NCBI RefSeq assembly: GCF_030028105.1
Contig: NC_092379.1
Location: forward strand, 108,614,408 to 108,678,407
Reading direction: 5' to 3'
From: Mobula birostris
Taxonomy: Eukaryota
Length of the DNA: 64,000 bases
Shown: piece after piece, positions 6,401 to 44,200 of the stretch
Layout of the letters: each line of letters begins with the position of its first letter
Position numbering within the stretch: the stretch's first letter is position 1
Program-made: the position numbers and the translations under genes
Notes under the pieces: model-generated
What the model saw: only the letters and a program-made list of their open reading frames with translations
Database searches by the model: none
Told to the model about the DNA's origin: nothing

Positions 6401-9400
6401 GTCAGTGAAGAACTATCAAGGGCCATGAGACCAATTTGTAGAAAAGGTGTACTCAGGGCAAAGTGAAATATTTTGTAGAAAATTGGGCTGAAACTTACAA
6501 ATGAAAATATATAATTTTATATTTAGCTATAATCTATAATATTATTAATATTACAGAGACTCCACATTCTCCAGCAGAAGAGGGAGGAAACAGATAATAA
6601 AGGGAGAGAGGATCAGCTACTAAACTAGACAAGAATAGGCTCCAAAGAACCGTCGGGGCTGCGGAAAGGATTATTGGTGTGAAGCTGCCCTCGATCCAGG
6701 ACTTATATGCATCTAGAGTCAGGAAGCGAGCAAGCAGCATCATTGTAGACCCATCACACCCTGGACATCACCTGTTCCAACATCTTCCTTCAAGTAGGCG
6801 CTTTAGATCACTGTATGCCAGGACAAATAGGTACAAGAACATTTTCTTTCCGTACGCCATCAGTCTTATGAACACTTGAATTTTAGTTTATTATAAACCA
6901 AGTCCACCTGCACGTACACAGGTATACTTCATTGTATATAGTTCACGATTATTTGCACTATTGTTTTGTTTGCTTTTTGATTCTGTACAGCGAGAGCTCA
7001 GGGAAACCGGCATCAAGTTCCCTGTATGTGTCCACGTACTTGGCGATAATAAAGGATTCTGATATAAAAAAAAGCTCTGCCCACCACACTCTCAAGTTGT
7101 AAAATAATACTGATAAATCAGTAACTATTGTTGCAAGAGAGATTTGAACTAAACAGGAAAGAGAAACATCAGGCATTGTGCTGGAAATATTTAGAGGCAA
7201 TTTTGAAGTAACATCAATGGTTACCTAAGGTGCCCACTGGGATGTATTTGATGGCAAGGTTTATTTCTCCTCTGTGGTCGACTCCAACTCCCACTGCAGG
7301 AATCTGCAAAAGAAAGTCAATAATTTATTAAAAGCGATTAGTTCAGTTGGGGACTTTCTCATTTGACAATCATTAGAAAAACTAGCATCTCACATAACAG
7401 ACACAGTGCTGGAGGAACACAGCAGGCCAGGCAGCATCTGAGGTAGAGTACAGTCAATGGTTTGGGCTGAGATCCACAGTAAGAGGGTTGGGGGAGGGAA
7501 GGAAGCAACAAGGTGAAACCTGGAGGGGAGAGGGGTGAAGTAAAGAGCTGGGGAGTCAATTGGTAAATGAGATACAGGGCTGGAGCAAGGGAAATCTGAT
7601 AGGAGAGGACAGAACACCATGGAAGAAAGAAAAAGGGGGGGGAGGAGCACCAGAGGGAGGTGATGGGCAGATAAGAAGACAAGGTGAGAGAGAGAATGGG
7701 GAATGGTGAAGGGGGATGGGCATTACTGGAAGTTCGGGAAATCGACATCCGTGCCATCAGGCTCCTCCAACCTGAGTGTAGCCTCAACACAACAGTAGAA
7801 GAGGTCATGGACTGATGTGTTGGAAAGGAAATGGGAAGTGGAAGTAAAATGGGTGGCCACTGGGAGATCCTGCTTTTTCTGGCAGACAGCATAGGTGCTC
7901 AGCAAAGCGGTCTCCCAATTTACGTTGGGACTCACCGATATACAGGAGGCCACATCAGGAGCACTGGATACAATAGATGACCTAGAGACTCACAGGTGAG
8001 GTGTTGCCTCAACTGGAAGGACTGTTTGACACCCTGAATAGTAGTGAGGGAAGAGGTGTAGGGACCCTGAATAGTAGTGAGGGAAGAGGTGTAGGGACAG
8101 GTGTAGCACTTGTTCTGCTGGCAAGGATAAGTGCCAAGAGGGAGATCTGAGGGGAAGTCTGATAGAATCCTTTCTCTGGAAAATGCAAAAGGATTTTAAC
8201 ATATTAAAAGATCATTTTAAAAGCTACGTTTTAAATATCGGCAGTTAATTAAAAGATTAAAGATTAAGATTAGGAAAAAGCACTACACTTTGCATTCTGT
8301 GCTGAGGTTGTGCAACATACACCAGGTAAGTGTACGTTCCTGGTCTTCTGCTGCTGTAGCCCATCCACTTCAAGGTTCAACATGATGTGTATTCAGAGAT
8401 GCATTTCTGCACATCACTGTTGTAATGCGTGGTTATTTGAGTTTTTGTGGCCTTCCTATCATCTTGAACCATTTTTGTCATTCTAAATGTATACTCTATA
8501 CTCTAGAGACTATGAAAATCCCAAGAGAACAGGAAGTTTAGAGATACTCAAACCATCCCATCTGGCACCAATAATCGTTCCATGATCAAAGTCACTTAGG
8601 TCACATTTCCCCCCATTCTGATGTTTGGTCTAAACAACTGAACCTCTTGACCATGTCTGCATGCTTTTATGCTGCCATATAATTGGCTGACTAGATATTT
8701 GCATTGATGAGCAGGTGTACGGGTATACCCAATAAAGTGGCCAAGTTTGGATTTTGAAAGACCTCTACAATTTTCAATCAGAGGAACATTATATCCTCAC
8801 AACCGCTGCTGGTGATAACTCACACTTCTCCTAAAATGCTGGCGGAGATAGGTAAACCATAGGTTTAGAGGCAGAAATAACATTTTATGTTACTTACCCT
8901 CGATTTTAGAAGATACCAGTTTAGCTCTCGATTACTCCAATCCCAACTGGCCAAGTCCAGATCCACCTCTCCCAGAAAACTATTCCGGCCCAGTGTGTCA
9001 TTATGCCAGACAGACAAATTAAGTCTCTGGATCAGGAGAACACTCTTCTCGATTCTATACTGTTAGTGGGAAAAAAAAACAATTGTATAAAAACCCAATT
9101 ATTCACCCAGTAGGTTGCTGATGTAGTAAATTAAAGCGTTTCATCTTCCTCAGTGAATTGTCCATTATGCATATCACTTAAGTGGATATGACTAGATAGC
9201 AGATTAACCAGATATTAATTCGAATGCTCTTCATAGAAGCTTGGAGACACTTGCCTAAAACACAGGGACAAAAGATTAATTTTGGAATGTTGGAGCATCC
9301 CAACATGTAAAATGCATTGTAAACTTTTTCCAAGGTGTTGCATTTGGCATCAAGATTCAGTTCTAGCTCAAATATTCCAAGTCAGCTGTTGTATGTAAAT

Positions 9401-12400: not shown

Positions 12401-14500
12401 TCCATGCACTTCTTTCACTGCTCTATCGCTCTGGGTCCCATCCCCCTCGCAAATTAGTTTAAACCCTCCTGAACCATGCTAGCAAACCTACCTGCAAAAA
12501 TATTGCTCCCCCTCGAGTTCAGGTGCAACCCATCCAATCTGTACAGGTCCCACCTTCCCCAGAAGAGATCCCAATGATCTAAAAATCTAAAACCCCGCTC
12601 CCTGCACCAACTCCTCAGCCACGCATTCAGCTGCCATCTCCTCCAATTCTTACCATCTCTGTCACGTAGCACTGGCAGCAATCCTGAGAACGTCACCCTT
12701 GAGGTCCTGTTCTTCAGCCTTCTGCCTAGTTCCCGAAACTCACACTTCAGGACCTCATCCCTCTTCCTGCCTATGTCGTTGGTCCCAACATGTATCACGA
12801 CTTCTGGTTGCTTTTCCTCTCGTACCAGGATGTCGTGTACCCGGTCAGAGACATCCCAGACCCTGGCACCCAGGAGGCAACAAACCATGTGGGTGTCCTT
12901 CTCACGTCCACAAAATCTCCCGTCTGCTCCCCTGACTACAGAGTCTGCAATGACGACAGCTCTCCTCTTCTCCGTCCCACCCTTCTGCACCACAGGGTCA
13001 GACTCAATGCCGGAGGCCCTGCCACCGTGGCTTACACCTGATCAGTCGTCCCCGCCAACAGTATCCAGGACAGTAAACTTATTATTCAGGTGAATGTCTA
13101 CAGGGGTGCTCTGCACTACCTGTCTGCTCACCTTCGCTTTCCCCCCTCTGACTGTCACCTAACGACCTGCTTCCGACAGCCTAGGTGTGACTACCTCCCT
13201 GTAGCTCTCATCTATGTCTGCCTCATTCTCCCTTATGAGTCGAAGGTCATCCAGCTGCTGCTCCAGATTCCTTACATGGTCTTCCAGATCGCCCAGCCGT
13301 ATGCACTTCTGGCAGATGTGACTCTGCGGGAGAGGGGAGTTCCCCCAAGGCTGCCACTTCTCACATGAGAGGCACATCACCGTCTCAGGAGACATTGTAA
13401 AAACTAACTGTGAGCTAGCTTGTCCTCCGCCTCTTCGAGTCAAAGCCTCAAAGCTCTATTCCTTCACTGGCCCACTCACGCTCTGGCTGCTTTGCTTGAG
13501 CTACCCCTCTATTTATCTATTTGAGCTTTTCAAAATGTTTGGTCTCCTGACCTCGACTGCCCAATCAGCTGCTTTCTGCTGAGTCTGAGCTATTCAAATC
13601 TTGATTGTCTAATCAACAGCTTTCTGCTGATCTATTCAAATCTTGATTGACTTGATTGCACAGACCAACTGCCAAAACTGCCAGAATCTCTCGAGTCAAA
13701 GCCTCAAAGCTCCACTCCTTCACTGGCCCACTCACGCTCTGGCCACTTTCTGAGTTAAATTACAATTTCATCTAATCTGAAGGAAATATCACTATACTAT
13801 TGGTGGAATAGGAATGACCACACCAATGGCATATGAAGAATTTGAGATCAAGAATTAACATCTATTGGCAGGAGGGCAAATTAAATTAAATATGTTAAAT
13901 GTAATTGGTAAATCTTATCAGAATGCGGATAACCTCCTCTAAAACCCAACTATCTCATCCAACAAACTCTGATGAAGGGTTTCAGCCCAAAATGTTGACT
14001 CTTTGTTCCTCCTCTCTGTAGATGCTGCCTGACTAGCTGAGTTCCTCCAGCATTTTGAGTGCTCAGGTGCCATCATACCTTCAGTATTTCATTGTAGATT
14101 GGATTAGTGTTTCTCTTCTTGACAGAGGTTTTCCTCTTGCCCATGCGTGCCTTATCTGGAAGCAAGTAGGTCTTTACATACCTGTAATGAGTCAAAACAA
14201 CACTTCTCAACTCTGCAATTTACAATAAAGTACAGCATTTTTAAATGTTTTGAATGATATCAATTATTTCACATCTGCTTCTTTCACTACCCCAGCAGTC
14301 TGTTCTAGGCACCTACCTCTCTGTGTAAAAATAAACTTACCCTGTACATCTTCTTTAATATTTCCATGCTCACATTAAATGCATTTTTCACTGTTTCATA
14401 TTAGGTAATCACAGTGAAATGAAACATATCCAGTCTACATGTGGCCTCAATGTGTGTCCTCCTTAAGGGATATATGCACGTATGCATATATTTAAACACA

Positions 14501-14534
<34 letters not shown>

Positions 14535-17500
14535 CAAGAGATAGCATTAAGTTTCAGAAGTTACTTAGGCAAAGTTTTTAATGAATTTTAAAACGAATCA
14601 TGGATTCCCTATCACATGATTTACACTACTTTCCAAAACTATTACTTTACATAAATAATAAGCATTTAGATGATTTTTTAAAACTATGAGCCCACGTGTT
14701 AAATATGAGTAACTGTAGCTTCGGAAAGTGCCAGGCTTGTTATGAGTGTCTCGTTGAGAGAGGAAGGGAAATGGTGCAACTAAACTTCCAAAGGAGCCCA
14801 GGATTTTTGTTGAAGTAATGCAGGATGGTTCCCTTGTCCATCATATAGTAAAGGACTCATGTGAATTGTGTCAGTGAGGGAGGAACAGTAAGCATAAAAG
14901 TATAAAGCAATAAATATGGCCCAATCACAAACAAGAGAAAGTCTGCAGATGCTGGAAAGCCAAGCAACACACACAAAATGCTGGAGGAACGCAGCAGGCC
15001 AGGCAGCATCTAGGAAGAGTACAGTCGACATTTCAGGCCTCTGACTCCATATCTTTTAATCCGGTCCTCATGAAGGATCTCGGCCTGAAACGTCGACTGC
15101 ACTCTTTTCCATAGATGCTGCTTGGCATGCTGAGTTCCTCCAGCATTGTGTGTGTGTTGAAATAAATGTGGTAGAGGTTTGTGTTAAAATCTAAAACTGA
15201 GAAGGGGAGTTCAGCCACTCCAGTACAGATTGTTTTTCTCTCCATAAGACTATAACACACAGGAGCAGAATTAGGCCATTCAGCCCATCAAGTCTGCTCC
15301 ACCATTCCATCATGACTGATCCTGGATCCCATTCAACCCCATACACCTGCCTTCTCGCCATATCTTTTGATGCCCTGACCAATCAGGAAGCTATCTACTT
15401 CCGCCTTAAATACATCCATGGACTTGGCCTCCACCACAGTCTGTGGCAGACCATTGCACAGATTTACTGTTCTCTAGTAAAACATTTCCTCCCTGCCTCT
15501 ATTCTAAAGGATCAACCCTCAGTTTTGAGGCTATGCACTCTAGTTCTGAATACCTCCACCATAGGAAACATCCTCTCTACATCCACCCTATCTAGTCCTT
15601 TCAGCATTTGGTAGATTTCAATTAGATCCCCCCAAAACTGCCAAATGCTCCTCATATATTCACCTCTTCATTCCTGGAATCATCTTTGTGAACCTCCTCT
15701 GGACTCTCTCGAATGACAACATATCCTTTCTTAGATATGGGGCTTAAAACTGTTGACAATACTCTAAGTGCAGCCTGATTTGTGTCTTATAAAGGCTCAG
15801 CATTATCTCCTTGCTTTTATATTCTATTCCCCTTGAAATAAATGCCAACATTGCATTTGCCTTCTTTACCACTGACTCAACCTGCAAATTAACCTTCCGG
15901 GGTTCTTGCACGAAGACTCCTAAGTCCCTCTACACCTCTGATGTTTGAACCTTCTCCCCATTTAGGTAATAGTCTGCACTATTGTTCCTTTTACTAAAGT
16001 GCATTATCATACATTTCCCAACACTGTATTCCATCCGTCACTTTTTGCCCATTCTTCCAATTTGTCTTAAGTCCTGTTGCGATTGTATTGCTTCCTCAGC
16101 ACTACCTACCCCTCCACCTATTTACATATCATCTGCAAACTTTGCCACAAAGCTATCGATTCCATTATCTAAATCACTGGCAAACAATGTGAAAAGTAGC
16201 GGTCTCAATATTGACCCCTGAGGAACACCACGAGTTACCGGCAGCCAACCAGAAAAGGTCTTTTTTATTCCCCCTCGCTGATTCCTGCCTGTCAACCATT
16301 CCGTATCCATGTCAGTATCTTTCCTGTAATGTCATGGGTGTGATTAATGCCATAATGTCAGGGGAGTTTTTAAAACAGTGACATGAGAGGAAGAGGAACA
16401 GAGGGAAAGCATTGAAAAACAAAGTCTACTTACGCATCAGTTCGTCCCTTCTTCTCATCCACCACTGCCAGGTCCTTACATTGACCCACATAGATTTGGA
16501 ACTCCTTGTTCTTCTCATTATAATCCAAGGCAAACTGAACTGACCCCTGGGCATCAATACTTCCAAAGTCAGCACTGTAAACACTCATGATGCTTCCACT
16601 CACCTGAAAGTGGCATTAAATATATTGTTATTTCTAGAAGTACATCATATCAGTATTCAGACTAGATTTATTTGTAAAGGTTACAAGAAATAGCTGATAC
16701 AATGAATTGGTACAAAGAGATCTATTCTTAGATCTACAAAACTGTTAAACTCCTCAAATGATCAACCACAGGAAGCAACTGCAAGCTTAAATAAATGTTT
16801 ATCTGGAAACATAAATATTCTTTGGTAACTAACAGAATACTTAGTAAATAATCAAGCTTTGCTTTATCAACAGTATAAAAAAAGGTTCTTCTAATTTTTG
16901 AAATCAGTACAAAACACTCAGGATATAAGTTGCAGTTTCTGTATCTTCACATGCCAAGTTAAGAAAACAAGCACATGATGATGCAGCCAGAAATAACTGA
17001 GAACCTGAGGGCAGGGGCGCCCTGCAGAAAGCTGTACAGTACTACTCGATACAGCACACACACACACAACTACTCAGAAACCCCAAAGAACCCGAAGGAT
17101 ACATTGAAATGACACTGACATAATGCAGCTCATTGCCCACAATTGAGACCTCAGATTTGACAATGCGGCAGCCAGCACCCTTCTCCCAACACCAAGTGTG
17201 CGAGGTTGGCCAAAGCCCCGTTGTGACTACAGCCTGAGGTGGGGGCAAAACCTAGCGCTTAGGGAAGTTTCTCTCTCCATGGATGCTGCTTGACCGTCTC
17301 GAGTTTCCAGGACTCTGTTTTGTTTCAGGTTTACAGCACCTGCAGCTTTTCAACTGGCATATTACAATGCAACCCAGTTCTATTGTATTAATAGTTATTC
17401 ATCCATCTATTTATTTATTGAGATACAGCATGAAGAAGGCCCTTGCAGCCCTTCGAGCTGTGCTGCCCAGCAATCCCCGATTTAACCCTAGCCTAATGGC

Positions 17501-20500
17501 ATCAGTGTGGAGTGGCAGCCAAATACAGGGTTTGGGAATTGGCAGGGGTGATGGCAGATCATAACCTGCAAGCAGAATCAGTAAGGAGACCAGAACATTC
17601 AAGAGTGGGCAGGGAATGGGATTTAGGTAAATCTCTCTACTTCCTCACGGGGATCCCAGTTTGCCACTGCAGGCTTAAGACCATCCTTCCCTGGTAATGC
17701 CCCACGATGGGTGCCTGCATCAGGATGTGGTTACCCTAGAGAGCGTGCAGAAAGTATTGACAAGAATGTTGCCTGGATAGCAGGACAGGCTGAGTTTTCT
17801 TTCCCTGAAGTGAGGGAGAGCGAGGGGTGACATGCCAGAGCTGTATAAATTATGAGAGGCAGAGATGGGGTAGATAGCCAGTGTCTGTTTCCCATGGTGC
17901 AGATGTCTAAAATTAGAGGGCACTGGTTTAAGGTAAGATAGAGGTGGTTCTGAGTACTAAATTGTTCAAGCAAACAGTAGCTGAAGGAGCTGCTAGGTGA
18001 GGTGGAGGTGTCAGCAACAGTAAAAAAAATTAAACTACAAGACCATAAGACATAGGAGCAGAATTAGGCCATTTAGCCCATCAATTCTGCTCTGTCATTC
18101 AATCATAGCTGAACATTTTTTTCCCATTCTCAGCCCCACTCCCTGGCCTTCTCCCGTAACCTTTGATGCCATGTCCAATTAAGAACCTATCAAGCTCTGC
18201 CTTAAATGCACCCAATGTCCTGGCCTCCACAGCTGCCTGAGGTAACAAATCCACAAATTTACCACCCATGGGCTAAAGAAATTTCTCCGCATCTCTGTCT
18301 TAAATGAACGTCCCTCCACCCTTAGGCTGTGCCCTCTTGTCCTAGACTCTCCCAACATGGGAAACTCCTTTCCACATTTGCTCTCTCTAAGCCTTTCAAT
18401 ATTCAGATGGTTTCATTGAGATCCCCTTCATCCTTTTAATTTCCAGCAAGTACAGACCCAGAGTTATCAAACATTCCTTCTATGATAATCCTTTAATTCC
18501 CAGAATCATCTTTGTGAACCTCCCCTGAACCCTCTTCAGTGCCAGCACATCTTTTCTTAGATGAGGAGCCCAAAACTGTTCACAATGCTTCCAAAGTCAG
18601 CACTGTAAACACTCATGATGCTTCCACTTACCTGAAAATGGCATTAAATATATTGTTATTTCTAGAAGTGCATCATATCAGTATTCATTTGCATCATATC
18701 AGTGGAGTGACAATTGCAACTTTCCAGTCCTCTGGCACCATGCCAAAGTCCAATGATTTTTGAAAGATCATTACTAATGCCTCCACAATCTCTACCACTA
18801 CCTCTTTCAGAACCCTAGGGCGTAGCTCATCTGGTCTGGGTGACTTATGCACCCTTAGGTCTTTCAGACTTTTGAGCAGTTTTCTCCCCTGTAATGGTAA
18901 CTGCACTCACTTCTCTTCCCACACCCTTCGACATCTGGCACACTGCTGGTATCTTTCACAGTGAAGACTGATGCTAAATACTCATTTAGTTCCTTGCCTC
19001 CCGTTATTATTTCTCCAGCCTCATTTTCTAGTGGTCCTGCATCGACTTTCATCTCCCTTTTTATCTTTTTTAGATATTTGAAAAAGCTGTTGCTACCCAC
19101 TTTGATATTGTTTACTAACTTGTTTTCATATTTTATTGTTCCCTCCTAACGTTTCTTTTAGTTGCTCTCTGTAGGTTTTTAGAAGCATCCCAATCCTCTA
19201 TTTTCCTGCTAATTTTTGGTTTGTCGTATGCCTTCTCTTTTGTTTTTACATTATCTTTGACTTCCCTTGTCAGCCATGGTTGTATTATTTTGCTATTTGA
19301 GTATTTCTTTGTTTTTGGAATATATCCATCCTGCACTTTCCTCATTTTTCCCAGAAACTCATTCCCCCCCCAAAAAAACTTGACAGGACAGGGAAGGATA
19401 TGTAATTATAAACATGAAGAAGTCTGTAGATGCTGGAAATCCAAAGAAACACACAGAAAATGCTGGAGGAACTCAGCAGGGCAGGCAGCATCTATGAAAA
19501 TTAATAAACAGTCGGCGTTTTGAGCTAAGACCGTTCTTCAGTACTGAAAGGAAAAGGAGAAGATGCCAGCATAAGAAGGTAAGGGTAGGGAAGGAGGCTA
19601 GCTGGAAGGTGACAGGTGAAAGCTGGTGGGTGGGAAAGGTAAAGGGCTGGAGAGGAAGGAATCTGACAGGAGAGAAGAGTGGACTATAGAAGAAAGGGAA
19701 GGAGGAGGGGACCAGGGGAAATTGATAGGCAGGTAAGAAGAGGTAAAAGGCCAGAATGGGGAACAGAGGAAGAGGGGTAGGGGAGGGATTTTTTTTCTGA
19801 TATTGATATTCATGCCATCATGTTGGTGGCTACCCAGATGGAATACAAGGTGTTGCTCCTCCACCCTGAGGGTGGCCTCATCTTGGCACAACAGGAGATC
19901 ATGGACCAAGATGTCAGAATGGGACTGAGGGTCGGAATTTTTATACACAGGGTTCACGGTCAGCGTAAACATAATGGACAAGAAGTCTACTTCTGTGCCC
20001 TACAACTCCGTGACTCCACGGTTGAAGTTCCTGCGGAATGACACCATGGTAGAGCAGCACGGTAGATGAGTGGTTAGCCAGCCGTAAGACCAGAGTTCAA
20101 TTCCCACCACAGTCTACGTGGGTTTCCTCAGAGTGCTCCAGTTTGCTCCCACTTCCCAAAAAAACATATGGACACGGGTTCGTGAGTTGTGGGCTTGCTA
20201 TGTGTGGCAGCACTGGTGGGCTGCTAAGCATAATCCTCACGGATTCAGTTTGAAGTAACACATTTCAATGTACATGTACAAATGAAGCTAATCTTTCTTT
20301 CTTTTTCTTTCTTATATGGGAAATTTGATCATCCCACGTAGGTTCAGTGCAGAACCTACATCACTGGTCTAGAATTTCACCTGGAAATGGGCACAAACAA
20401 AACTTAATCCAGGTTAAGCTAACTGTTGTAACAGTGTTGTGTGAGTTAATTTCAAGGCAATAATTCTTTCGTATACGTGTAACATACAGAAGCTGAAGAA

Positions 20501-23500
20501 ACAAACAAAGTCTGTCTATTTCTGTGGAGCTGGGGGTGGATACTAAAAATAATCTTGTGTAGGTGTGATAGTCTGAAGATTTAAAACCTTTGCATTAAGA
20601 TGTGATCAAAATCTCCCCCAGCTTACCTCCTACGCCAACAACCTACAGGAGTATTTGTCAGGTCCTTCACCAGAGTCCATCAGTCTCAGGCCTTTAGAAA
20701 AGTGGGATAGCAGGGAGAGATGGGCGAATGCACTCAACAAGGGTCATTGCTGCACAGCTGGACATCCAGCAAACTGTCTATCAACACAAGCTATTTACAC
20801 AAACATGCCAGGCATCACTAGCCAACTTAATATTGGCTGCTTCAGTACATACATTACTTTGCAGGTATGATCAGCTCATGATTAGAACTACAGGAAAGCG
20901 CATACTGCAATATTAAAATTATACACCGAGGAGTCACAGAAAAATAGCAAACAAATGATGACTTGCAGAATCCCTCCACCATGGTCACCATTTGAACATC
21001 ACCCACAAGAGGCTCTGGGCACACACTTCATTACATCAGCTGCACCATAAGGGCGATTGTCCAGCTCTTGTTCTTCATGGGGCAACTGATTATCAAAAGA
21101 ACAACAACTTTTCCTTTGTAAACGGTTCTTTTTCCTTTCAACTGCACCCTCAGGTTGGAACTTGCAGTCTGCTCTGTTTTATCCGGAGGAGACCTACCGT
21201 GAAAATCCCATTCAGTGGCGAGGCAGGTAACCAAGCAGTATGGCGCAAATTTCTCTGCATGTAATTAACTGTTCTTCGGCTTGTGGTAACAACTAAACTT
21301 CAAAGTCGAAGGAATACTGGCATTCAGGTGTATTCCACCACCAAAATACGTAGTAAACAATATACAGTATGAGCAGCCAACAAAGCAAACCAGAACTCCT
21401 GAGGATAAGGGCTGTATTGCAAGATTAGACACCCAGACTAAAGAAAAAGTTTCTGACCTTTTGTGGTTCAAGAGCGCATATACAGTCTACGTTAGAATAA
21501 TTGTGTGCAGATTTCAATAAACAGGGTTAGAACACGTCAAGATTTTGTATGGATAAATTCCTACCGAAGAAACCGATGCCATATCTGAAGAATGGCTGGC
21601 ATCGCTGGGTGTCTTCCTGTGCCATCCAATGTTGAAGCTGATCTCGGAGGCCGAATCAGATTCACTCTGACAAAACAAGACAGACCGACAGACCAGTTGA
21701 ATAAAGGAGCTCAATATTCTTTCAAATAGAAATCATAGCGAATCTGCAAGATCCTTTGTCACAAGCACAATTTCACACACTGATTATTTATTTCCATCTG
21801 CAAACCAAGTTATTTACTGTTGGGGTAAAATGTAAGCAAATGAGACTAGCTTAGATGGGAACTATGGTCCACATGAACCTAACTCGATTAGTAAGGGTGT
21901 CAATGGTTACGGGGAGAAGGCAGTAGAACAGGTTTGATACAGATGAATCAGCCATGATCAAATGGTGGAGCAGACTTGATGGACTGAATGGCCTAAGTCT
22001 TGTTCCTGTGTCTTACGGAGTAACTGCTTATTTATACTTATTTAATTTAAAGATAGAGTTTGGAACAGGCCTTTCTGGCCCAATGAGCTACCCTGCCCAG
22101 CAACCCTCTGATTTAACCCTCGTCTAATCACAGAACAATTTGCAATGTCCAATTAACCTACTAAGCAGTACATGCACTCACAGGAAGGCTGATCAATCTC
22201 ATTACAGATGGCAATGGAATTGAACTCCGAACCCTGATGCCCCTGGCTATGATAGCATCACGCTAAACACTACTCTATGGCAGAGTTGGTTATCTAGATT
22301 AGTCTATGATAGTAGCCAACATGTTAGTAGAAACCTGTTCAATTACCAGTTAACTATTTGCCAGCCAGCTGAGTAGATAAATGGACATCTTTTTTATTGT
22401 CTCATAAACAATTAGCGCTGTCTGGAAGTTGGACATGGAGCAGAGCTACCCAGCAATGGAAATAACATTTAAATATTAGATTTTAAATAGCTGAAGATAA
22501 AAAGCATTTTTTTGGGTGACAGTGTTTGGAAAGTCAGAAGTGGCGATTGCACACAGTAAATATTAACAAACAACGTTAATTAAATTTAGCTGATTTATGG
22601 GGGGGATCTGAGGGGGGGGGAGCTTCTTCATGCAGAAGGTGGGGCAAGTGTGGAGTGCGCTGCCAATGCCATTGATAGATGCGGGATCAATTCTAATATT
22701 TAAGAAAAGTTTGGGTAGGTACATGGATTAGAGAGGTATGGAAGGCCAGGGTACAGATAGGCTAGGTAGATGGACTAGATCAGGTTGGCATGGACTAGAT
22801 GGGCCAAAAGGCCTGTTTCTGTGTGGTCAATGTCTATGACTCTAAATGTTGTCGCACAAGCGTTAGGTGACATGGAATAGGGTAAAAATATATTTTTCAG
22901 GATAGTATGTGTTTAATATTCAAACCTTATGATAATAATCAAATGGTTATCCAGCCCATCACCAGCAAGGCAAACTGTAGCACATGCTCACTGCATCTCA
23001 AAGCTCCGGGAGAATCAGGTGAAGTCATGATGGACTTCAATAACATTCGTCTGGTGTCAATGAATAAGTGTGAGAAATTAAGAGAACTAGTATCGCAAGA
23101 TGAAGTCATCTAAAATTCTCAAATAATGATGTAATTTTTCATGTTGGTCACAACGACTTCATTGTTCAAAGTAGTTGCCCCATGCTTAGAAGCACAAGTT
23201 TGTCGTCAAGAAATGGAATAAATTGTGAATAGAATTCAGACTTGAACAGTTGTTTCAAGAGCGATATGCTCAGTCACCTCACACCGAACAGTTGTGAATT
23301 TGTAAGAATTTACATGATTTGAAGTTCTGTATTAAAAATCCGACTTTCCTTAAGTAGGCAATGCTTTATAGTAGTTGAAGAGAAACAATTGTAACACAGG
23401 GATTGGGGTAGGCAGGTTAATTTTGAATTGGTGATGTTAATTCCCTCAACTTTTACTGCTCAGGATTTTCTGGAGGTCTTAATTCCATCCATTCATTTAT

Positions 23501-26264: not shown

Positions 26265-29200
26265 TTTGATAATAAGTTTATTTTGAACCTTAATAGGTTA
26301 CTACCTGAAATTGTTTTCAAAGACCTATCATACAGTTAAATTGAGCTCATTAAGGGTGCAATTCTCACAAGAAAACATATTACGGGATAGTAGGAACATC
26401 CATTGTTTTCTTACAATGCCGTCTGTACAGACGGAATATTGGGTTGAAGGTCATCACGTCAATGGTTTGGAAATACATCAACTTTTCCAACAAAGGGAGT
26501 GGAAGAAATTTGACCATTCTGTTAGCGGCTGTTATTTCTAGATCAATAAATTACAAAACAAAAGCCAAATGCAGGAAAGTTGCCTTGGGAGAGTTCTTTT
26601 TCTTTTTAAATCTTTTTATTAGTTTTTCAAAATTATAAACTCAATAACAAAGTTGGTACAAAGAGATCGGATAAATGTTCATCAGCATATATAAAATGAA
26701 TTTTAAGTAACATAGAAATAAAAGACTTCCAAACTCATAATGAGATTAAACATTAACAAAGAAATAAAAAGAAAAAAAAATATAAACAAAAAAAAACCCA
26801 AAGGAAAACGAGAAAGAAAAACCAAAAAAAAAGACAGAACAGGGCTAGACCAACAACTTGTATCAGACACGATCAATAATGTTGTTAACTCTGCTCCTCT
26901 CATCATATAATTTTAGAAAAATGATCCGGAAAGGTCAGATTACATCATATGAAAATGTTGCAGGGAGAGTTCTGTATTAATTAACAGGCAGTACTTTTAA
27001 ACTCGTCACGTGCCCAAATAATGTAAATTAATGACTGAGATATATCCAGTTCACTCGAGACGCACAAAAACATGGTTCTATTCCTCATGTCAGTCTGTGA
27101 CATGCTGGGAAGTCATTCCAACCCATTACCTAGTCACCAATAATTGGCGAAATTGAGAATTATTTCTTTATTGTGTACCACTGTTTTAGGTAGACCTGTA
27201 CACCTGCTCGTTAATGCAAATGTCTAATCAGCCAATCATGTAGCAGCAACTCAATGCATAAAATCATGCAGATATGGTCAGAAGGTTCGGTTGTTGTTCA
27301 GACCAAATATCAGAATGGGGAAAAAATGTGACCAAGGTGACTTTGACTGTGGAATGATTGTTGATGCCAGACACGGTTGTTTGAATATCTCAGATATTGC
27401 TGAACCCCTGGGCTTTTCACACACAACAATCTCTAGAGAATGGTGCGAAAAACAAAGCAATACATCCAGTGAACACCAGTTGTGTGGGCGAAAATGCCTT
27501 GTTGTTGAAAGAGGTCAAAGGAGAATGGCCGGATTGGTATAAGCTGACAGGAAGGCACCAGTAACTCAAATAACGACACGTTACAGCAGTGGTGTGCAGA
27601 AGAGCATCCCTGAATGCACAACACATCCGAGCTTGAAGTGGATGGGCTACAGCAGCTGAAGACCATGAACATATTTCAAACAAAATGCAAGCCTCTAAAA
27701 AGGTGGAAAACACATTGTATATCAATGGCTCGGGAATGCTGCCAAGCCCTAAATACTTTACTATTAGGAAGTTTATACCATTAAAATAGTCTGCCACTGA
27801 AATGTCTATTGTGTATTCAGATCAGAAGAAAATAAATATATATAGGTTTGAGATGTGATCTCATTTAATAATTTCTTAATGTTATTTCAATGGTGGTTCT
27901 GAATGATTTCTTGAAATGAAAAAACCTTACACATTTCAGATACCATTTCCAAATTCATCAGTAAGAATGCCATTGTAGAAGACAACAGTATTCAACAGAG
28001 TTAGAAGTCATGCAAGCTTTTCATAATTAATCCCTCACCATCTCCTCTTGTTTCATTGTCATTCACCAAGGAAGTGATTGTTTCTCCTGTAAGGAAAAAA
28101 AAATAAAACTGAATTCTGTCTGTTGGCCAGTTTATGAGTACGTTCACCAAGTTGGTAGATTAGGTCAGCTAAAGCAATATCCCCATGAGAAACCTGAATC
28201 AAAATTAGAAACATTCAAGATACTCAGGTATGAAAGGAGACTGAGCTTGTACCTGGAACAATTCTCTCTCCCCCACTTTTATTCATTGAGTTCATTCCTT
28301 CACGACTCCCCAGTTCAATCTGTCATCCAAGTCTACTACCCCCGCCACCCCCCCCACCCCATCAACTGGCATTTTCTGCATTTATTATTCACTACGGTCC
28401 CCTCTAGAGTGGAGAAGCTAACTGCAGGTTGGATGATCACTTCGCAGGAGTAAGCCTGAGATTCCAGTTACCTGCCAGTTTAATTCACCATCCCAAGGCT
28501 TTAACATCGACAATTGCTCCTCCTCACCTTTCCCCCCACAGATACTGCCAGTCCTTCTCCCGCAGCTTGTTTCACCTGCACTCTCTTGTATCTCCATCAG
28601 TACATCTAAGAGCTTTGTACGCTCTGTATTATCCATTAGTTAGTACACTTCAATGATGGTATAACAGCCACAATGTTATTTTTATGCAGTATTGAAATAG
28701 AATCAGAAAAGGTACACATAATTTTTTACCTGGTTGCATTAAACATGAAAACAACTAATGTTCCAGTTATAACATACAGGCAGGAAGGAAAAAAGTAAGC
28801 ACATGGAAGAGAAAGGTACTCTTTACTGTGCAAACAAAATGAGCAATAGCTTCTTCCTCTGTGTAGTGTTTATCAAACACAGGCACAATCTGTTGATACA
28901 GGTGAAATGCTAGAGTAGAACCTACATTCTACACTGCATTCCTGCCTGTTATGAGACTCTGTCCACATCATTTTTGATCATCTTTGGTAAATCTTCTCAT
29001 TCTCTACATACTGACTGTATCTTCACATATCAACTGCTTCTAAAAATGGCTCAATGTTTTCACAATTTGTGCTTAAACACCCTTATCCTCCTTTACCCAT
29101 AAGATATCCATATTTACCTAGAGTCATAGAACACTACAGTTCAGAAACAGGCCCTTCAGCCCATCCAGTGTGTGCTGAACCATTAACCTGCCCAGTCCCA

Positions 29201-32200
29201 TTGACCTGCACCCAGACCATAGCCCTCCATACACCTCCCAGCCACACATTTCTCTTAAATGTTGAAATTGACCCTGAATCCACAACATGCTCTGTCAGCT
29301 CACACCCTCTGAGTGAAAAAGTTCTCCCTCATGTTCCCTTTGAATATTTCACCTTTCACCTTTAACCCCTGACATCTATCTGTAGCCTCACGCAACTTCA
29401 TTGGAAAATGCCTGCTTGCATTTACCCTATATATAATCCCTCCCTCAATTTGTATGGCTCTATCAAATCTCCCCTCAATTTTCTATGATCTAAGGAATGA
29501 AATCCTAACCTATTCAACCTTTCCCTATAACTCAGGTCCTCAAGTGCAGCAACATCCTTGTAAATTTTCTTGCACTCATGCAATATTTTATATCCTTCCT
29601 GTAGATACATTACATCCTTGCTTTCATATTCCGGACTTCTTAAAATTAGTGCTAACATCTCATTTGCCTTCCTCACCACAGACTCAATCTGCAAATTAAG
29701 CTCTAGGGAATCCTGCATAAGGACTCCCAAGTCCCTTTGCACCTCAGTTTTTTGTGTTTTCTCTCCATTTAGAAAACAGTCAACCCTTTCTTTTACCAAA
29801 GTCCATGACCATACACTTCCCGTCCCTGTATTCCATCTGCCACTTCTTTGCACATTCTCCTAATCTATCTAAATCGTTCTGCAGTCTCTCTACTTCCTGA
29901 AAACTACGTGCCCCTCCACTTATCTTCATATTGTCTGCAAACTTTGCAACAAAGTTATCAATTTCATCATCAAAATCATTGATATGTAACATAAAAAGCA
30001 TTGGTCCCAACACAGACCCCAGTGGAACACCACTGTTCTCCGGCAGCCAACCAAAAAAGGTTCCCTTTATTCCCACTCTTTGCCTCCTGCTAATCAGCCA
30101 CTGTTTCATCCATACCAGAATATTTCTTGTAACTTAATAAGCAGCCGCACATTGAGGCACCTTATCAAAGGCCTTCTGAAAATCCAAGTACACAACATCA
30201 ACCAATTCTCCTTTGTCTGTCCTGCTTATTATTTCTTCAAAGAATTCCAACAGATTTGTCAGGCAAGACTTTGCCTTGAGGAAACCAGGCTGACTCTGGC
30301 TTATTTTATCATGTCCAAGTACCCTGAGACCTCGTCCTTAACAATCAACTCCAGCATCTTCCCAACCACTGAGGTCAGACTAACTGGTCTATAATTTCCT
30401 TTCTGCTGCCTCTCATCCTTCTTAAAGAGTGGAGTGACATTTGCAATTTTCCAGTCTTCTGGAACCGTTCCAGAATCTTGTGATTCTTGAAAGATCATTG
30501 CTAATGCCTGCACAATCTCTTCAGTCACCCCTTTCAGAACCCTGGGGTGTATACCATCAGGTCCAGAGGACTTATCTACCTTCAGACCTTTTTGTTTCCC
30601 AAGAACCTTCTCCCTAGTAATGGTAACTTCACACACTTCATGCCCTCTGACACCTGGAATTTCTCCATACTGCTAGTGTCTTTCACATTGAAGGCCGATA
30701 TAGAATGGCTATGCAATTCATCCATTTCCTTGTCCCCCATTAAGAGCTTTCCAGCATCATTTTCCATTGGTCCAATATCCACTCTTGCCTCTTTTTTTAC
30801 ACGTTATGTATATGAAGAAGTTTTTGGTACCCTCTTCAATATTAGTGGCTAGCTTACTTTCATATTCCATCTTAACTTTCTTAATGACTTTTTTTAGTTG
30901 CCCTCTGTTGGTTTTTCAAAGCTTCCCAATCTTTTAACTTCCCACTAATTTTTGCTCTGTTATATGTCCTCTCTTTGGCCTTTATGTTGGCTTTGACTTC
31001 TCATATTAGCCACGGTTGTTTCATCTTTCTTTTGGAATATTTTTTCCTCTTTGGAACTTTTATATCCTGTGTCTTCCGAATTGCTTCCAGAAATTCCAAC
31101 CATTGCTGCTCTGCCATCATTCCTGCCAGTGTTCTTCTCCAATCAAATTTGGCCAACTCCTCTCTCATGCCTCTATAATTCCCTTTATACTGATAAATTT
31201 AACTTTAGCTTCCCCTTCTCAGATTTCTGGGTCAATTTGATCAGATTATGATCACTTTCCCCTAAGGGTTCTTTTACATTAAGCTCTCTATTCAATTCCA
31301 ATTCATTGCACAACACCCAATCCAAAATAGCTGATCCCCTAGTGGGCTCAACCTCAAGCTGCTTTAAAAAGCCATCTCATGGGCACTCTAGATATTCCTC
31401 TTCTGGAATCTAGCACCAACCTGATTTTCCCCAATCTACCTGAATATCGAAATCCCCCATGACTATTGTAACATTGCCACTTTGGCATGCATTTTTTATC
31501 TCCCATTGTAATTTGCAGACCACATCCTCACTACCATTTGGGGGTCAGTATACAACTCATATCAGGGTCTTTTTACTCTTGCAGTTCCACAGCTCTATCC
31601 ACAATGATTCAACACTTTTCAATCCTATGTCACCTCCTTTTAGCGATTTGATTTCATTTTCTACCAACAGAGCAACTTTTGCATTCCTGCCTGTCCTTTC
31701 AGTATTGTGTATCCTTGGACATTAAGCTTCCAGCTATAACCTTCTTTCAGCCATGATTCAGTAATACCTACAACATCACACATGCCAATCTGTAACTGTG
31801 CTACAAGTTCATCTACCTTATCCAGTATACTGTGTACGTTCAAATATAAAACCTTTAGTCCTGTATTCACACTTTTGATTTTATCCATCTTTTACATTGC
31901 AACTCGTCTTGCTGTCTGCAGTTTTGCTCTATCAACAGTCTCTCCTCACTACATATTGCCTCAGTTTGTAAACGTAGAAACATAGAAACATAGAGAATGG
32001 GTGCAGGAGTAGGCCATTCGGCCCTTTGAGCCTGCACCGCCATTCAGTATGATCATGGCTGATCATCCAACTCAGAACCCTTCCCTCCATACCCCCAATC
32101 CCTTTAGCCACAAGGGCCATATCTAACTCCCTCTTAAATATAGCCAAAGGTGAGGGAGTAGCATTGTTTGTTAGGGAAAATATTACAGCAGTGCTCAGGC

Positions 32201-35200
32201 AGGACAGGTTAGAGGGCTTGTCTACTGAGTCCTTATGGGTGGAGCTGAAAAACAGGAAAGGTATGGCCACATTAGTGGGATTGTATTACAGACCACCCAA
32301 TAGTCAACGAGACTTGGAAGAGCAAATCTGCAGAGAGATAGCAGGCAACTGCAGGAAACATAAAGTTGTGGTGGTAGGGGATTTTAATTTTCCATATATT
32401 GATTGGGACTCCCATACTGTTAGAGGCCTAGATGGTTTAGAGTTTGTAAAATGTGTTCAGGAAAGTTTTCTAAATCAATATATAGAGGGACCACCTAGAG
32501 GGGATGCAATATTGGATCTCCTGTTAGGAAATGAGTTAGGACAAGTGACAGAAGTCTCTATAGGGGAGCACTTTGGTTCCAGTGATCATAACACCATTAG
32601 TTTCAACTTGATCATGGACAAGGATAGATCTGGTCCTAGGGTTGAGGTTCTGAACTGGAAGAAGGCCAAATTTGAAGAAATGAGAAAGGATCTAAAAAGC
32701 GTGGATTGGGACAGGTTGTTCTCTGGCAAAGATGTGATTGGTAGGTGGGAAGCCTTCAAAGGGGAAATTTTGAGAGTGCAGAGTTTGTATGTTCCTGTCA
32801 GGATTAAAGGCAAATTGAATAGGAATAAGGAACCTTGGTTCTCAAGGGATATTGCAACTCTGATAAAGAAGAAGATGGAGTTGTATGAAATGTATAGGAA
32901 ACAGAGAGTAAATCAGGTGCTTGAGGAGTATAAGAAGTGCAAGAAAATACTTAAGAAAGTAATCAGGAGGGCTAAAAGAAGACATGAGGTTGCCTTGGCA
33001 GTCAAAGTGAAGGATAATCCAAAGAGCTTTTACAGGTATATTAAGAGCAAAAGGATTGTAAGGGATAAAATTGGTCCTCTTGAAGATCAGAGTGGTCGGC
33101 TATGTGCGGAACCAAAGGAAATGGGGGAGATCTTAAATAGGTTTTTTGCATCTGTACTTACTAAGGAAACTGGCATGAAGTCTATGGAATTGAGGGAATC
33201 AAGTAGTGAGATCATGGAAACTGTACGGATTGAAAAGGAGGAGGTGCTTGCTGTCTTGAGGAAAATTAAAGTGGATAAATCCCCGGGACCTGACAAAGTC
33301 TTCCCTCGGACCTTGAAGGAGACTAGTGTTGAAATTGCGGGGGCCCTGGCAGAAATATTTAAAATGTCGCTGTCTACGGGTGAGGTGCCGGAGGATTGGA
33401 GAGTGGCTCATGTTGTTCCATTGTTTAAAAAAGAATCAAAAAGTAATCCGGGAAATTATAGGCCGGTGAGTTTAACATCGGTAGTAGGTAAGTTATTGGA
33501 GGGAGTTCTAAGAGACGGAATCTACAAGCATTTGGATAGACAGGGACTTATCAGGGAGAGTCAACATGGCTTTGTGCGTGGTAGGTCATGTTTGACCAAT
33601 CTATTGGAGTTTTTCACGGAGGTTACCAGGAAAGTGGATGAAGGGAAGGCAGTGGATATTGTCTACATGGACTTCAGTAAGGCCTTTGACAAGGTCCCGC
33701 ATGGGAAGTTAGTTAGGAAAATTCAGTCACTAGGTATACATGGAGAGGTGGTAAATTGGATTAGACATTGGCTCAATGGAAGAAGCCAAAGAGCGGTGGT
33801 AGAGAATTGCTTCTCTGAGTGGAGGCCGGTGACTGGTGGTGTGCCACAGGGATCAGTGCTGGGTCCATTGTTATTTGTCACCTATATCAATGATCTGGAT
33901 GATAATGTGGTAAATTGGATCAGCAAATTTGCTGATGATACAAAGATTGGAGGTGTAGTAGACAGTGAGGAAGGTTTTCAGAGCCTGCAGAGGGACTTGG
34001 ACCAGCTGGAAAAATGGGCTGAAAAATAGCAGATGGAGTTTAATACAGACAAGTGTGAGGTATTGCACGTTGGAAGGACAAACCAAGGTAGAACATACAG
34101 GGTTAATGGTAAGGCACGAGGAGTGCAGTAGAACAGAGGGATCTGGGAATACAGATACAAAATTCCCTAAAAGTGGGGTCACAAGTAGATAGGGTCGTAA
34201 AGAGAGCTTTTGGTACATTGGCCTTTATTAATCAAAGTATTGAGTATAAGAGCTGGAATATTATGATGAGGTTGTATAAGGCATTGGTGAGGCCGAATCT
34301 GGAGTATTGTGTTCAGTTTTGGTCACCAAATTACAGGAAGGATATAAATAAGGTTGAAAGAGTGCAGAGAAGGTTTACAAGGATGTTGCCAGGACTTGAG
34401 AAACTCAGTTACAGAGAAAGGTTGATTAGGTTAGGACTTTATTCCCTAGAGCGTAGAAGAATGAGGGGAGATTTGATAGGGGTATATAAAATTATGATGG
34501 GTATAGACAGAGTGAATGCAAGCAGGCTTTTTCCACTGAGGCAAGGGGAGAAAAAAACCAGAGGACATGGGTTAAGGGTGAGGGGGGAAAAGTTTAAAGG
34601 GAACATTGGGGGGGGCTTCTTCACACAGAGAGTGGTGGGAGTATGGAATGAGCTGCCAGATGAGGTGGTAAATGCAGGTTCTTTTTTAACATTTAAGAAT
34701 AAATTGGACAGATACATGGATGGGAGGTGTATGGAGGGATATGGTCTGTGTGCAGGTCAGTGGGACTAGGCAGAAAATGGTTCGGCACAGCCAAGAAGGG
34801 CCAAAAGGTCTGTTTCTGTGCTGTAGTTTCTATGGTTTCTATGGTTTCAATGAACTGGCCTCAACTGTTTCCTGTGGCAGAGAATTCCACAGATTCACCA
34901 CTCTCTGTGTGAAGAAGGTTTTCCTCATCTCGGTCCTAAAAGGCTTCCCGTTTATCCTTAAACTGTGACCCCTCGTTCTGGACTTCCCCAACATCGGGAA
35001 CAATCTTCCTGCATCTAGCCTGTCCAATTCCTTTAGAATTTTATACGTTTCAATAAGATCCCCCATCAATCTTCTAAACTCCAGCGAGTATAAGCCTAGT
35101 CGATCCAGTCTTTCATCATATGAAAGTCCTGCCATCCCAGGAATCAATCCAGTGAACCTTCTTTGTACACCCCCTGTGGCAAGAATGTCTTTCCTCAGAT

Positions 35201-41200: not shown

Positions 41201-44200
41201 TCGCAGTGGAGTGGGTAATTGAAGCTGTGTCGTACAAGGCTAATTCAGCTGCCAATTTCTTTAGTTTTTCATGCATCTCCTTTCTTGCATCCTCCTTTGG
41301 TGAGAGAATCTTCACTTTTACAGTTTCCTCCACAACATCAACAGATGCATTGTGATTGTTTTTCATGACAGGTAAAGATTCATCTGAACTGCAGCTACTG
41401 GACATCCTTGTGCTTGTAGGTTTTCCAGATTCAATGGATTCTGGAACATTCTTGTCTCGTGCTTGATCGTCACTACTGTAAGTTCTCTGGACAAATGCTT
41501 TGGCTGATTTATCAGTGGATGTATTTGCATCATTTTTTTCCACTTTGATAGTGGTGTTGGTTCTTGAAGAGGGAACTGGAGGCAACTTGCTAGTTTTAGT
41601 CAATTGGGTGACTTTTTCCTCTTCCTCAGAGGAATAAGGACCTGACAATCTTTTGCGAAGTTCCAGTTTTGACGAGTCACTGGTTGGGAGACTTTCCCTG
41701 GACTTTGACTCAGCCTCTGTAAAATGTTTCATTTCAGTCAGGCTGCTTCTATGATCTGGTGATCTAACTTTTCTGAATGGAATTGTGGAAGTAGCACTGT
41801 TTCCTTTATTGGAATCAATTCCTTTTTCCCAAAAATGCTTCAGGTTTTTAAAATGGCTGGGATCAGTGAGTACTTCTTCTTCAGAATGCTTATTACCCAA
41901 GGCACTTATGGTGAAAACAGCACCTGGCTTATGACTTTTCTCTCCCTCATCATCAGAAGAGGACGTCTGATACTGAGCTATTCTGGGAGTAGGTTGCAAG
42001 GCAGCCTTTCCTTGGTCAGTCACCTGAGCAGCTCTGTTCTTACCTGACATAGCTTTACTTGATCGCTTCAGATCTTCAACACATGCATGTGAATTTTCAC
42101 TTGTTGTTTCTAAGGTACTCTTAAGCCTTGGAATTTGTGAGGTTGGTGATAGATCCGGTCTTTCCAATGGTTGATGTGTTTGTTGGTCTTCAGTAGCAAT
42201 GGTTGGAGACGAAACTCGTGGACCTAGTACATTAAAAGAACAAGATCCAATTAATGATAAATCCAGTCACTGCTAAGTAAGGTTACACTGAAATCAACTG
42301 AACTGATGATAAACACAAAACATGCTATCCCAGCTGTGATAAGATGTTAACCCCTGTTGGGTTTATTGTAACATACAACTGTAGCTGTGTTGCGGAACTC
42401 TAGCCTGCTTCTGATCAAAACAGAGTTTCATACCATTTTTGGGTATTTTCTTGAGGGAATAGTCAAGGCACATGAATCTAATTATGTTTATACAACTATT
42501 TTCTTTATACCAAAAGACAAGGCCGGATAGGTATTTCTCAAAATACAACACTTCCACTTTTGATAGGTAGAGGGGAAAAGAGGTCACCACTGCTTCAAAG
42601 CATACAGTGCCTATAAAAAGCATTCAGCCCCCTTAGAAGTTTTCATGTTTTATTGTTTTACATCATTGAATCAAAGTGGATTTAATTTGGCTTTTTTTGA
42701 CACTGATCAACGGAAAGAGACTCCTCTGTGTCAAAGTGAAAACAGATCTCTACTAAGTGATCTAAATTAATTATAAATATAAAACATGAAACAATTGATT
42801 GCGTAAGTATTCATCACACTTTAATATGACACTCCAAATCATCACTGGTGCAGCCAATTGATTTAGAAGTTGTGTAATTAGATAAGTGGAGATCTGTTTT
42901 TGGGGACTTGTGTGCAGTCAAGATGTTTCAACTGAATGTAGTAAAAATACACCTGTATCTGGAAGGTCCAATTGCTGGTGAGTCAGTATCCCGGCAAAAA
43001 CTACACCATGAAGACGAAAGGACACTCCAAGCAACTCCGTGAAAAGCACAAGTTAGGAGATGGATACAAGAAAATTTCCAAATCAGTAAATATCCCTTGG
43101 AGTACAGTTAAGTCAATCATCAAGAAATGGAAAGAATGTGACACAGCTGTAGATCTGCCTAGAGCAGGCCGTCCTCAAAAACTGTGACCGTGCAAGAAGG
43201 GTACTAGTGATGGAGGCTACCAAGAGACCTATGACAACTCTGGAGGAGTTACAAGCTTCAGTGGCTGAGATGGGAGAGACTGTGCATACAACAACTGCTG
43301 CCTGGGTGCTTCACCAGTTGCAACTCTATAGGGGAGTGGCAAAGAGAAAGCCACAAGATTTCCTGAAGGCATGTGGGAGACTCTAAAGTCAGTTGAGGAA
43401 GGTTCTATGGTCTGATGATACCAAAATTGAGCTTTTTGGCTATTAGGCTAACACCACACATCATCAAAAACACACCATCCCTACCGTGTAGCATGGTGGT
43501 GGCTGCATCATGCTGTGGGGATGTTTCACTGCAGCAGGCCCTGGAAGGCTTGTGAAGGTAGAGGGTAAAATGAATGCAGCAAGATAATGGGAAATCCTGG
43601 AGGAGAACCTGATGCAGACAGCAAGAGAACTGTGACTTGGGAGAAGATTTGTTTATCAGCAAGACAGCAACCCCAAGCATAAAGCCAAAGCTACACAGGA
43701 ATGGCTTAAAAATCACAAAGCTAATGTCCTGGAGTGGCCAAGTCAGAGTCCAGACTTCAGTGTCAAAAAAAGCCAAATTAAATCCATTGTGATTCAATGT
43801 TGTAAAACAATAAAACATGAAAACTTATGGGGGGGGGGGGAAATAATTTTTTATAAGCACTGTAAATGAATCAGCCATAAATACTGTGGTTGCCAGAGGA
43901 GGTCAGACACTGAGAATCCTGCAGCAAGTGCCTCAGCACCCATTTTGTCCAAGCCTAACTTTCTCCCCTAGGTTGGATGGGTGCAGTTTCAACAGCTTTC
44001 AGGAAAATTGACACAATCCAGCACAATGCACGCTGCTTGATTGATTTCCCGAAATACTTATCCCCTTCACTACTGTCATATAATCGATGTAAAGTATGCT
44101 CTCTACTATATATATTGCAATTACTATTAGAGTCATAGCCTTTGAGATTCACAGAACAGAAACAGGCCCTTTGGCCCATCTAGTCCATGCTGAAACCATT

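Follow-up and report, generated by a model that had tools for sequence, protein, structure and literature searches.

A template-switching scar as a probable origin of a SYTL2 splice-acceptor copy inside an intronic LINE of Mobula birostris

How did the start of a coding exon come to lie inside a decayed retrotransposon two kilobases ahead of the exon itself, and does the splice acceptor that came with it take part in splicing? The question is raised by an intron of SYTL2 (Slp2) in a window of 64,000 nucleotides of the Mobula birostris genome (contig NC_092379.1), whose internal positions are used throughout. The window carries most of the gene on its minus strand, and the best protein match, with 100% identity across many exons, is from Mobula birostris, followed by those of other rays and sharks. 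The copy sits in a 4961-nt intron between exons 21666-21565 and 16603-16434. The upstream exon (21565-21666, minus strand, 102 nt), placed by protein match and boundaries, has the donor TCG/GTAGGA. The downstream exon (16434-16603, minus strand, 170 nt) opens the C2A domain and begins cag/GTGAGT, which is read as Val-Ser; it is 100% identical to protein P0001 over 57 aa and is covered by an RNA-like contig. A 1.6-kb alternative exon of SYTL2 at 40584-42224 matches long isoforms over 547 aa, and the short isoform P0001 uses just its first 61 codons. In mammalian isoforms (proteins P0041, P0043 and others) AFLQDE is joined directly to VSGS, the exon equivalent to 21666-21565 being skipped, and both upstream donors meet the same GT-starting exon.

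The insert at 18583-18687 (minus strand) is a copy of 16555-16659 (minus strand), a template delimited by sequence comparison. The two lie 2028 bp apart and agree at 101 of 105 positions (96.2%), and the copy consists of 56 nt of intron and the first 49 nt of the C2A exon. All four mismatches (at 16559, 16601, 16610 and 16642) are transitions, both exonic differences are synonymous, and around 16601 and 16610 source and copy share identical runs of 41 and 31 nt. The pair scores a blastn E value of 4e-43, has the highest identity among six self-hits in the window (at least 88% over at least 40 bp), and is the sole internal duplicate within 16400-21700. It is followed by a re-copy of 14 nt, ACTGATATGATGCA on the minus strand, at 18690-18703, which is identical to 18669-18682 and is parted from the main copy by AA at 18688-18689. 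At the site equivalent to 16642 the re-copy bears the allele of the copy and not that of the source. The initial annotation had described a 105-bp recurrence 2028 bp away with four mismatches, a second short re-copy and synonymous exonic changes, and the alignment bears out each of these statements. A possible extension of the copy by 4-5 nt to 16674, with a skip of 11 nt, was also considered and is within chance.

The insert lies between two remnants of a decayed LINE. The 5′ remnant (18701-19360, minus strand) ends at VTPL codons before the reverse transcriptase (RT) core, aligns at 70% to a copy at 30428-31096 and matches LINE ORF2 in tblastn. The 3′ remnant (18039-18589, minus strand), placed by sister alignment, extends from the codons equivalent to EYCVQFW to the 3′ end of the element, and the 3′ ends of the family pile up at 18039. 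Sister ORFs match RVT_1 and Exo_endo_phos_2, and the remnants align to those ORFs. The element is putatively CR1-like rather than L2, a label taken over from the initial annotation. Inspection by eye revealed no clear target-site duplication at either end of the LINE. The deletion was sized on the three of seven LINE copies in the window that have both flanks, one or both being absent from the other four; against these copies 882, 879 and 891 bp are missing, and the gap covers the RT core. This agrees with the earlier statement that the insert replaces about 0.9 kb of RT sequence. Microhomology, which had been claimed for both joints, is indeed present at both but is significant at one. Exon and LINE share seven nucleotides at 18583-18589 (minus strand), AGTATTG (AGCATTG in the copy), for which the probability of a match of at least this length is about 0.0006; of the five LINE copies aligning at this joint, three read AGTATTG and two AGTACTG. 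At the opposite joint (18701-18703, minus strand), up to which paralogous contigs align, LINE and re-copy share ACT, and a match of at least three nucleotides has a probability of about 0.06, which is not significant alone.

Several other repeats were recorded in the window. The LINE copy at 29200-31300 is the closest match to the studied element in its 5′ part, is unaligned in its 3′ part at the EYC joint, and seems to have an internal deletion of its own. A near-intact LINE ORF2 on the plus strand (32053-34769) has 658 open codons with endonuclease and RT domains and then breaks before the C-terminal part. Upstream of LINE ORFs at 9.4-13.0 kb there is a 59-bp direct repeat (13435-13493 and 13691-13749, 93% identical), possibly within the 5′ region of that LINE, and a perfect 33-bp tandem duplication of 2.1 copies lies within a repeat at 8031-8098. 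The element at 42600-43865, with 79-nt inverted arms (42628-42706 and 43757-43835, 92%), CAGTG...CACTG ends and a decayed transposase-like stretch between them, is presumably a Tc1/mariner copy with an internal deletion.

The presence of the copy in sequencing data was approached through contigs from four of 24 runs, compared with the window at 86% likeness. Repeats dominate these matches, which were read by depth arithmetic and contig geometry from 40 of 311 differences and 15 of 1730 joints. In run X1 (organism A) three unique contigs show no difference from the window over about 2450 positions. The X1 contig over the source has exactly two, one of which is the copy's letter (T) at 16601. 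This T is probably a collapsed bubble of the 31-mer graph, and could be a real allele or a gene conversion from the copy into the true exon. In run X9 (organism C, 5.5% diverged) the contig over the source stops matching at 16560 and continues with 31 unaligned letters, the geometry expected of a 31-mer path that leads via the copy's variant at 18587 into the LINE flank. The three DNA runs contain 4, 4 and 3 records that match at two places, and X14, an RNA-like run, contains 0. Taken together these patterns suggest that the raw reads contain the copy and that a relative at about 5.5% divergence has it too. That the assembly process itself had made the copy is extremely improbable; although no contig spanning the insert is among the matches listed, four substitutions and unique joints speak against an artefact, the X1 differences are those predicted for a collapsed bubble, the X9 contig breaks where a path into the copy's LINE flank should, and the two-place records occur in a stretch whose only internal duplicate is the copy-source pair.

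Contigs of X1, X5 and X9 pass from unique intron into the LINE tail at the same site and all end at 18061; LINE and copy would both be older than the split from organism C. No relative with an intact LINE at the site was seen among these contigs, which stop at that position. At 16601 the runs X5 and X9 agree with the window, by which the direction G>A on the copy side appears right. If the copy is shared with organism C, at least 2.9 changes are expected under neutrality, against 2-4 per 105 bp, so that its divergence would fit neutral drift and gives no sign of constraint. Intron repeats differ from their majority letters by roughly 5-6% (131 differing places in X1 over an estimated ~2300 repeat bases). 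The copy thus looks somewhat younger than the LINE, at 2-4% against a rough 5-6%, although the age estimates overlap.

Templated insertion at a microhomology deletion joint is a known kind of mutation, and three of its features are found here: a nearby template, a deletion of 879-891 bp and microhomology at the joints. We consider it likely that the insert is a germline scar of microhomology-driven template switching in the course of DNA repair or replication, one that probably has no role in splicing, and we lean towards an origin at the DNA level in one step. For the order of events, their timing and the enzymes we infer the following. Synthesis would have run along the plus strand, passing from the 7-nt match into the 105-nt copy, then by a backward slip into the 14-nt re-copy and from there to the 3-nt match. 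A broken or stalled LINE end in CAATACT may have annealed to the same seven nucleotides in the exon 2 kb behind, and synthesis would then have copied about 100 nt through the acceptor. The strand would have slipped back, copied 14 nt a second time and rejoined the LINE 0.88 kb further on via 3 nt, after which the copy presumably drifted. The distant invasion would have used the long match and the final join the short one, which fits an MMBIR/FoSTeS-like start and a Pol-theta-like finish. According to PMC5068794, Pol-theta inserts average about 10 bp and about 85% of them are primed no farther than 10 bp from the break; priming can recur on one flank, and about 3% of inserts made by Pol theta or synthesis-dependent microhomology-mediated end joining (SD-MMEJ) map to distant sites. 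For FoSTeS/MMBIR, PMC5120786 reports templated insertions that measure hundreds of bp, derive from loci nearby and show more than 4 bp of microhomology. The initial annotation had named polymerase theta or synthesis-dependent end joining as the source. What stands of this is the insertion of templated sequence where a deletion was joined through microhomology. A 105-bp piece whose template lies 2 kb off is atypical of Pol theta, and only the 14-nt re-copy is a textbook footprint of that enzyme, since the larger piece is too long and too distant.

The same end state, and the same class of scar, would be reached if a 2028-bp tandem duplication at the 7-nt microhomology had been followed by the loss of about 2.8 kb, the gap being sealed through Pol-theta end joining that added a flank-templated insert of 14 nt and left 105 bp of the duplicate. 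This second insert, whose template lies 5-19 nt from the break and whose priming match is 3 nt, has the typical Pol-theta geometry, and its sharing of the copy's allele would follow if the mutation in the copy had come first. That allele would be seen just as well, however, if the source had changed later or if the polymerase had made an error and then re-copied it, and two rare events are needed at one place, so that we regard this sequence of events as unlikely. Rather less probable still is a switch made during retrotransposition, with the LINE RT, coming from the 3′ end, moving at the 7-nt match to nearby DNA or to nascent SYTL2 pre-mRNA, copying 105 nt, slipping and returning to the LINE RNA 0.88 kb upstream. 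LINE, gene and insert do share one orientation, first-strand synthesis would meet the joints in the same order, and the insert holds intron and exon in one piece, like unspliced RNA. Precedents exist in double template jumps (PMC2104539), in 22 templated insertions among about 3600 somatic L1s (10.1101/2024.08.27.596794) and in PMC11702581 and PMC13174262. Age does not separate LINE from copy, since, with the LINE at a rough 5.6% and the copy of equal age, three or fewer changes on the copy branch would have a probability of about 0.16, and in this respect a retrotransposition-coupled origin is compatible with the data. Against it, the copy looks the somewhat younger of the two, three switches and a return to the LINE RNA are needed, and the template ends 1380 bp from the LINE 3′ end at 18039, away from the integration site, whereas the templates of the L1 insertions in 10.1101/2024.08.27.596794 are typically no more than 15 bp from the site of insertion.

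The copied acceptor overlaps a donor-like hexamer, CAG/GTAAGT, at 18626-18634 (minus strand; AG at 18633-18632). A branch-point-like TACTGAT, identified as a motif match at 18677-18683 (minus strand), lies at −52 and is present in the source too, and a further one, CACTGAT at −73, comes from the re-copy. With use of the copied acceptor and read-through, translation would reach an in-frame TAA 24 codons on (18557-18559, minus strand). The positions of the acceptor and stop, the GTAAGT and a 28-letter read-through peptide had all been given correctly before. It had also been proposed that one change made a consensus donor, and this part does not hold: the real exon start, cag/GTGAGT, is already a consensus GTRAGT donor, and AAG/GTGAGT is a genuine SYTL2 donor at 46456. 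With the upstream exon joined, the duplex energies of TCG/GTGAGT and TCG/GTAAGT are practically equal, at −10.5 and −10.4 kcal/mol, as computed against the complement of a donor consensus. A donor matrix trained on 13 SYTL2 donors puts GTAAGT about 1.8 bits above GTGAGT (5.73 for TCG/GTAAGT, 3.96 for TCG/GTGAGT; gene median 1.49, range −0.98 to 7.16). G>A may thus strengthen the reconstituted donor a little, and it created no site. The AG/GTRAGT motif is in the copy because the real exon starts with Val-Ser codons, and came with the template. Val-Ser is found at the exon start in 77 of 102 homologues; 12 murine homologues have Ala-Ser, which is incompatible with a GT start, and 13 were unmatched by the pattern. 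The next SYTL2 exon also begins ag/GTATGT. These consecutive exons, at 16603 and 14181 (minus strand), start ag/GTGAGT and ag/GTATGT, respectively, and the first of them is a candidate annotated RS-exon; murine rodents, with Ala in place of Val (12 of the 102 homologues), have lost its GT. In a scan of metagenomes the acceptor pattern matched no stretch.

No GTRAG donor occurs 20-400 nt past the copied acceptor, the first being at +983. The best of 20 GT sites there, TGG/GTCTGT at +174, falls in the 28th percentile of 500 random windows and scores 1.21, weak but inside the range of the gene's own donors on the 13-site matrix. As no good donor follows it, the prediction is that splicing mostly passes over the decoy acceptor. 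Duplex energy was dropped as evidence on exon definition, as sites downstream of the copy reach −6.5 and genuine donors range from −4.1 to −11.6 with no separation. In the RNA-like run X14 a single 6795-nt contig lies on the real exon and is unbroken through the 41-nt stretch common to source and copy, and the bin depths 6.98 and 31.2 match the joint 16601-21563, that is, the normal junction with the G allele. This is one run whose RNA status was guessed, as none of the runs listed is recorded as RNA (in itself no evidence on expression), and contigs drop rare forms; it argues weakly against an abundant form without C2 domains. Recursive use would give the same mRNA, and on this X14 says nothing.

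A real splicing role for the copy is in our estimation improbable. The reading proposed initially was a zero-length recursive splice point, with the donor at 21565 joining to 18632 and the resulting TCG/GTAAGT then joining to 16604, by which the decoy would be neutralised. An intact acceptor AG with branch-like motifs does lie ahead of the real acceptor, the reconstituted donor beats the native upstream one (5.73 against 1.49 bits), the outcome would be invisible in mRNA, and one of the four changes hits position +3, for which the chance, reckoned post hoc for a named site, is about 4%. Intron length could be held against recursive splicing, an argument weakened by PMC10156609, which reports low-level recursive splicing in smaller introns. 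The motif nevertheless predates the copy, being CAG/GTGAGT in the source, divergence looks neutral with no sign of constraint, and no GTRAG lies within 400 nt, unlike known intronic recursive sites, which accompany a cryptic exon and a downstream donor (PMC6224609, PMC8605326). In the same two sources only 9-10 efficient intronic recursive sites are reported in humans, and PMC6224609 states that 1.7-4.9% of human exons reconstitute a donor, are normally included and are kept so by the EJC. We hold recursive use to be very unlikely, and the copy should not be classed as a recursive splice site, as it has only the motif and that motif is inherited. Very unlikely too is a recursive site born by copying an exon start and kept across ray species, the switch possibly made by a LINE RT on pre-mRNA. 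The copied acceptor might instead define a poison exon (e.g. the 174 nt to TGG/GTCTGT) or a C2-less Slp2 isoform regulating SYTL2 output. The in-frame stop after 24 codons, the donor at 18457 and ATTAAA at 18497 and 18440 are in line with this, but the donor is weak and the X14 transcript, within the bounds given above for that run, is unbroken through the shared 41 nt with no two-place records; we judge such a function highly improbable. The inertness that we infer for the template-switching scar has its own counterpoints: the copied acceptor is intact with AG and branch-like motifs, the donor 174 nt downstream lies inside the gene's range, and the matrix rates GTAAGT above GTGAGT.

Read as a template-switching scar, the locus offers a clean case from nature in which the order of events can be followed. 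It illustrates that a near-perfect second acceptor can lie 2 kb ahead of a real one, and for work on exon definition source and copy are a ready-made natural control. If recursive use were true, recursive sites could arise by duplicating an exon start that already reconstitutes a donor; a copy-born site would be a one-step route to new recursive sites, with a working zero-length splice point in a 5-kb intron. Among the top-ranked titles listed in the literature, none dealt with this locus or with the birth of recursive sites through duplication of an exon start.

With known intronic recursive sites (PMC8605326, PMC10156609) the copy shares a YAG/GTAAG motif within an intron, a likeness in sequence, whereas here a good downstream donor is missing, the intron is 5 kb and the tract is AT-rich and not pyrimidine-rich. 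The real exon 16603-16434 reconstitutes a strong TCG/GTGAGT, as do EJC-repressed annotated RS-exons (PMC6224609), and this is where the motif originates; that exon is likened to them by its letters, and the copy, unlike annotated RS-exons, has no defined exon of its own. Retrotransposition-coupled insertions and tripartite LINE chimeras (10.1101/2024.08.27.596794, PMC11702581, PMC2104539) likewise hold a non-LINE template of less than 250 bp inside a LINE in the same orientation. The present template is, however, about 1.4 kb off the integration point and not within 15 bp of it, and the LINE is collinear on both sides with 0.88 kb skipped.

Class 2 TSIPs (PMC5110952) are similar in that a patch of comparable length (73-414 bp in the experimental set) is found at a break with microhomology, but their donors are distant, whereas here the donor is 2 kb away in cis and the insert is apparently species-shared and not polymorphic. 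The 14-nt flank-templated insert, the short priming match, the renewed priming from one side and a deletion in the 50-1000 bp range are those of Pol-theta/SD-MMEJ (PMC5068794), while the 105-bp piece, with its template 2 kb off, is longer than usual (about 10 bp) and comes from farther away. With FoSTeS/MMBIR joints (PMC5120786) the locus has in common a deletion, a nearby template, iterative switching and microhomology of more than 4 bp at one joint, and it differs from those cases in its scale of 105 bp and 2 kb and in being fixed in the intron of a wild species and not part of a disease rearrangement.
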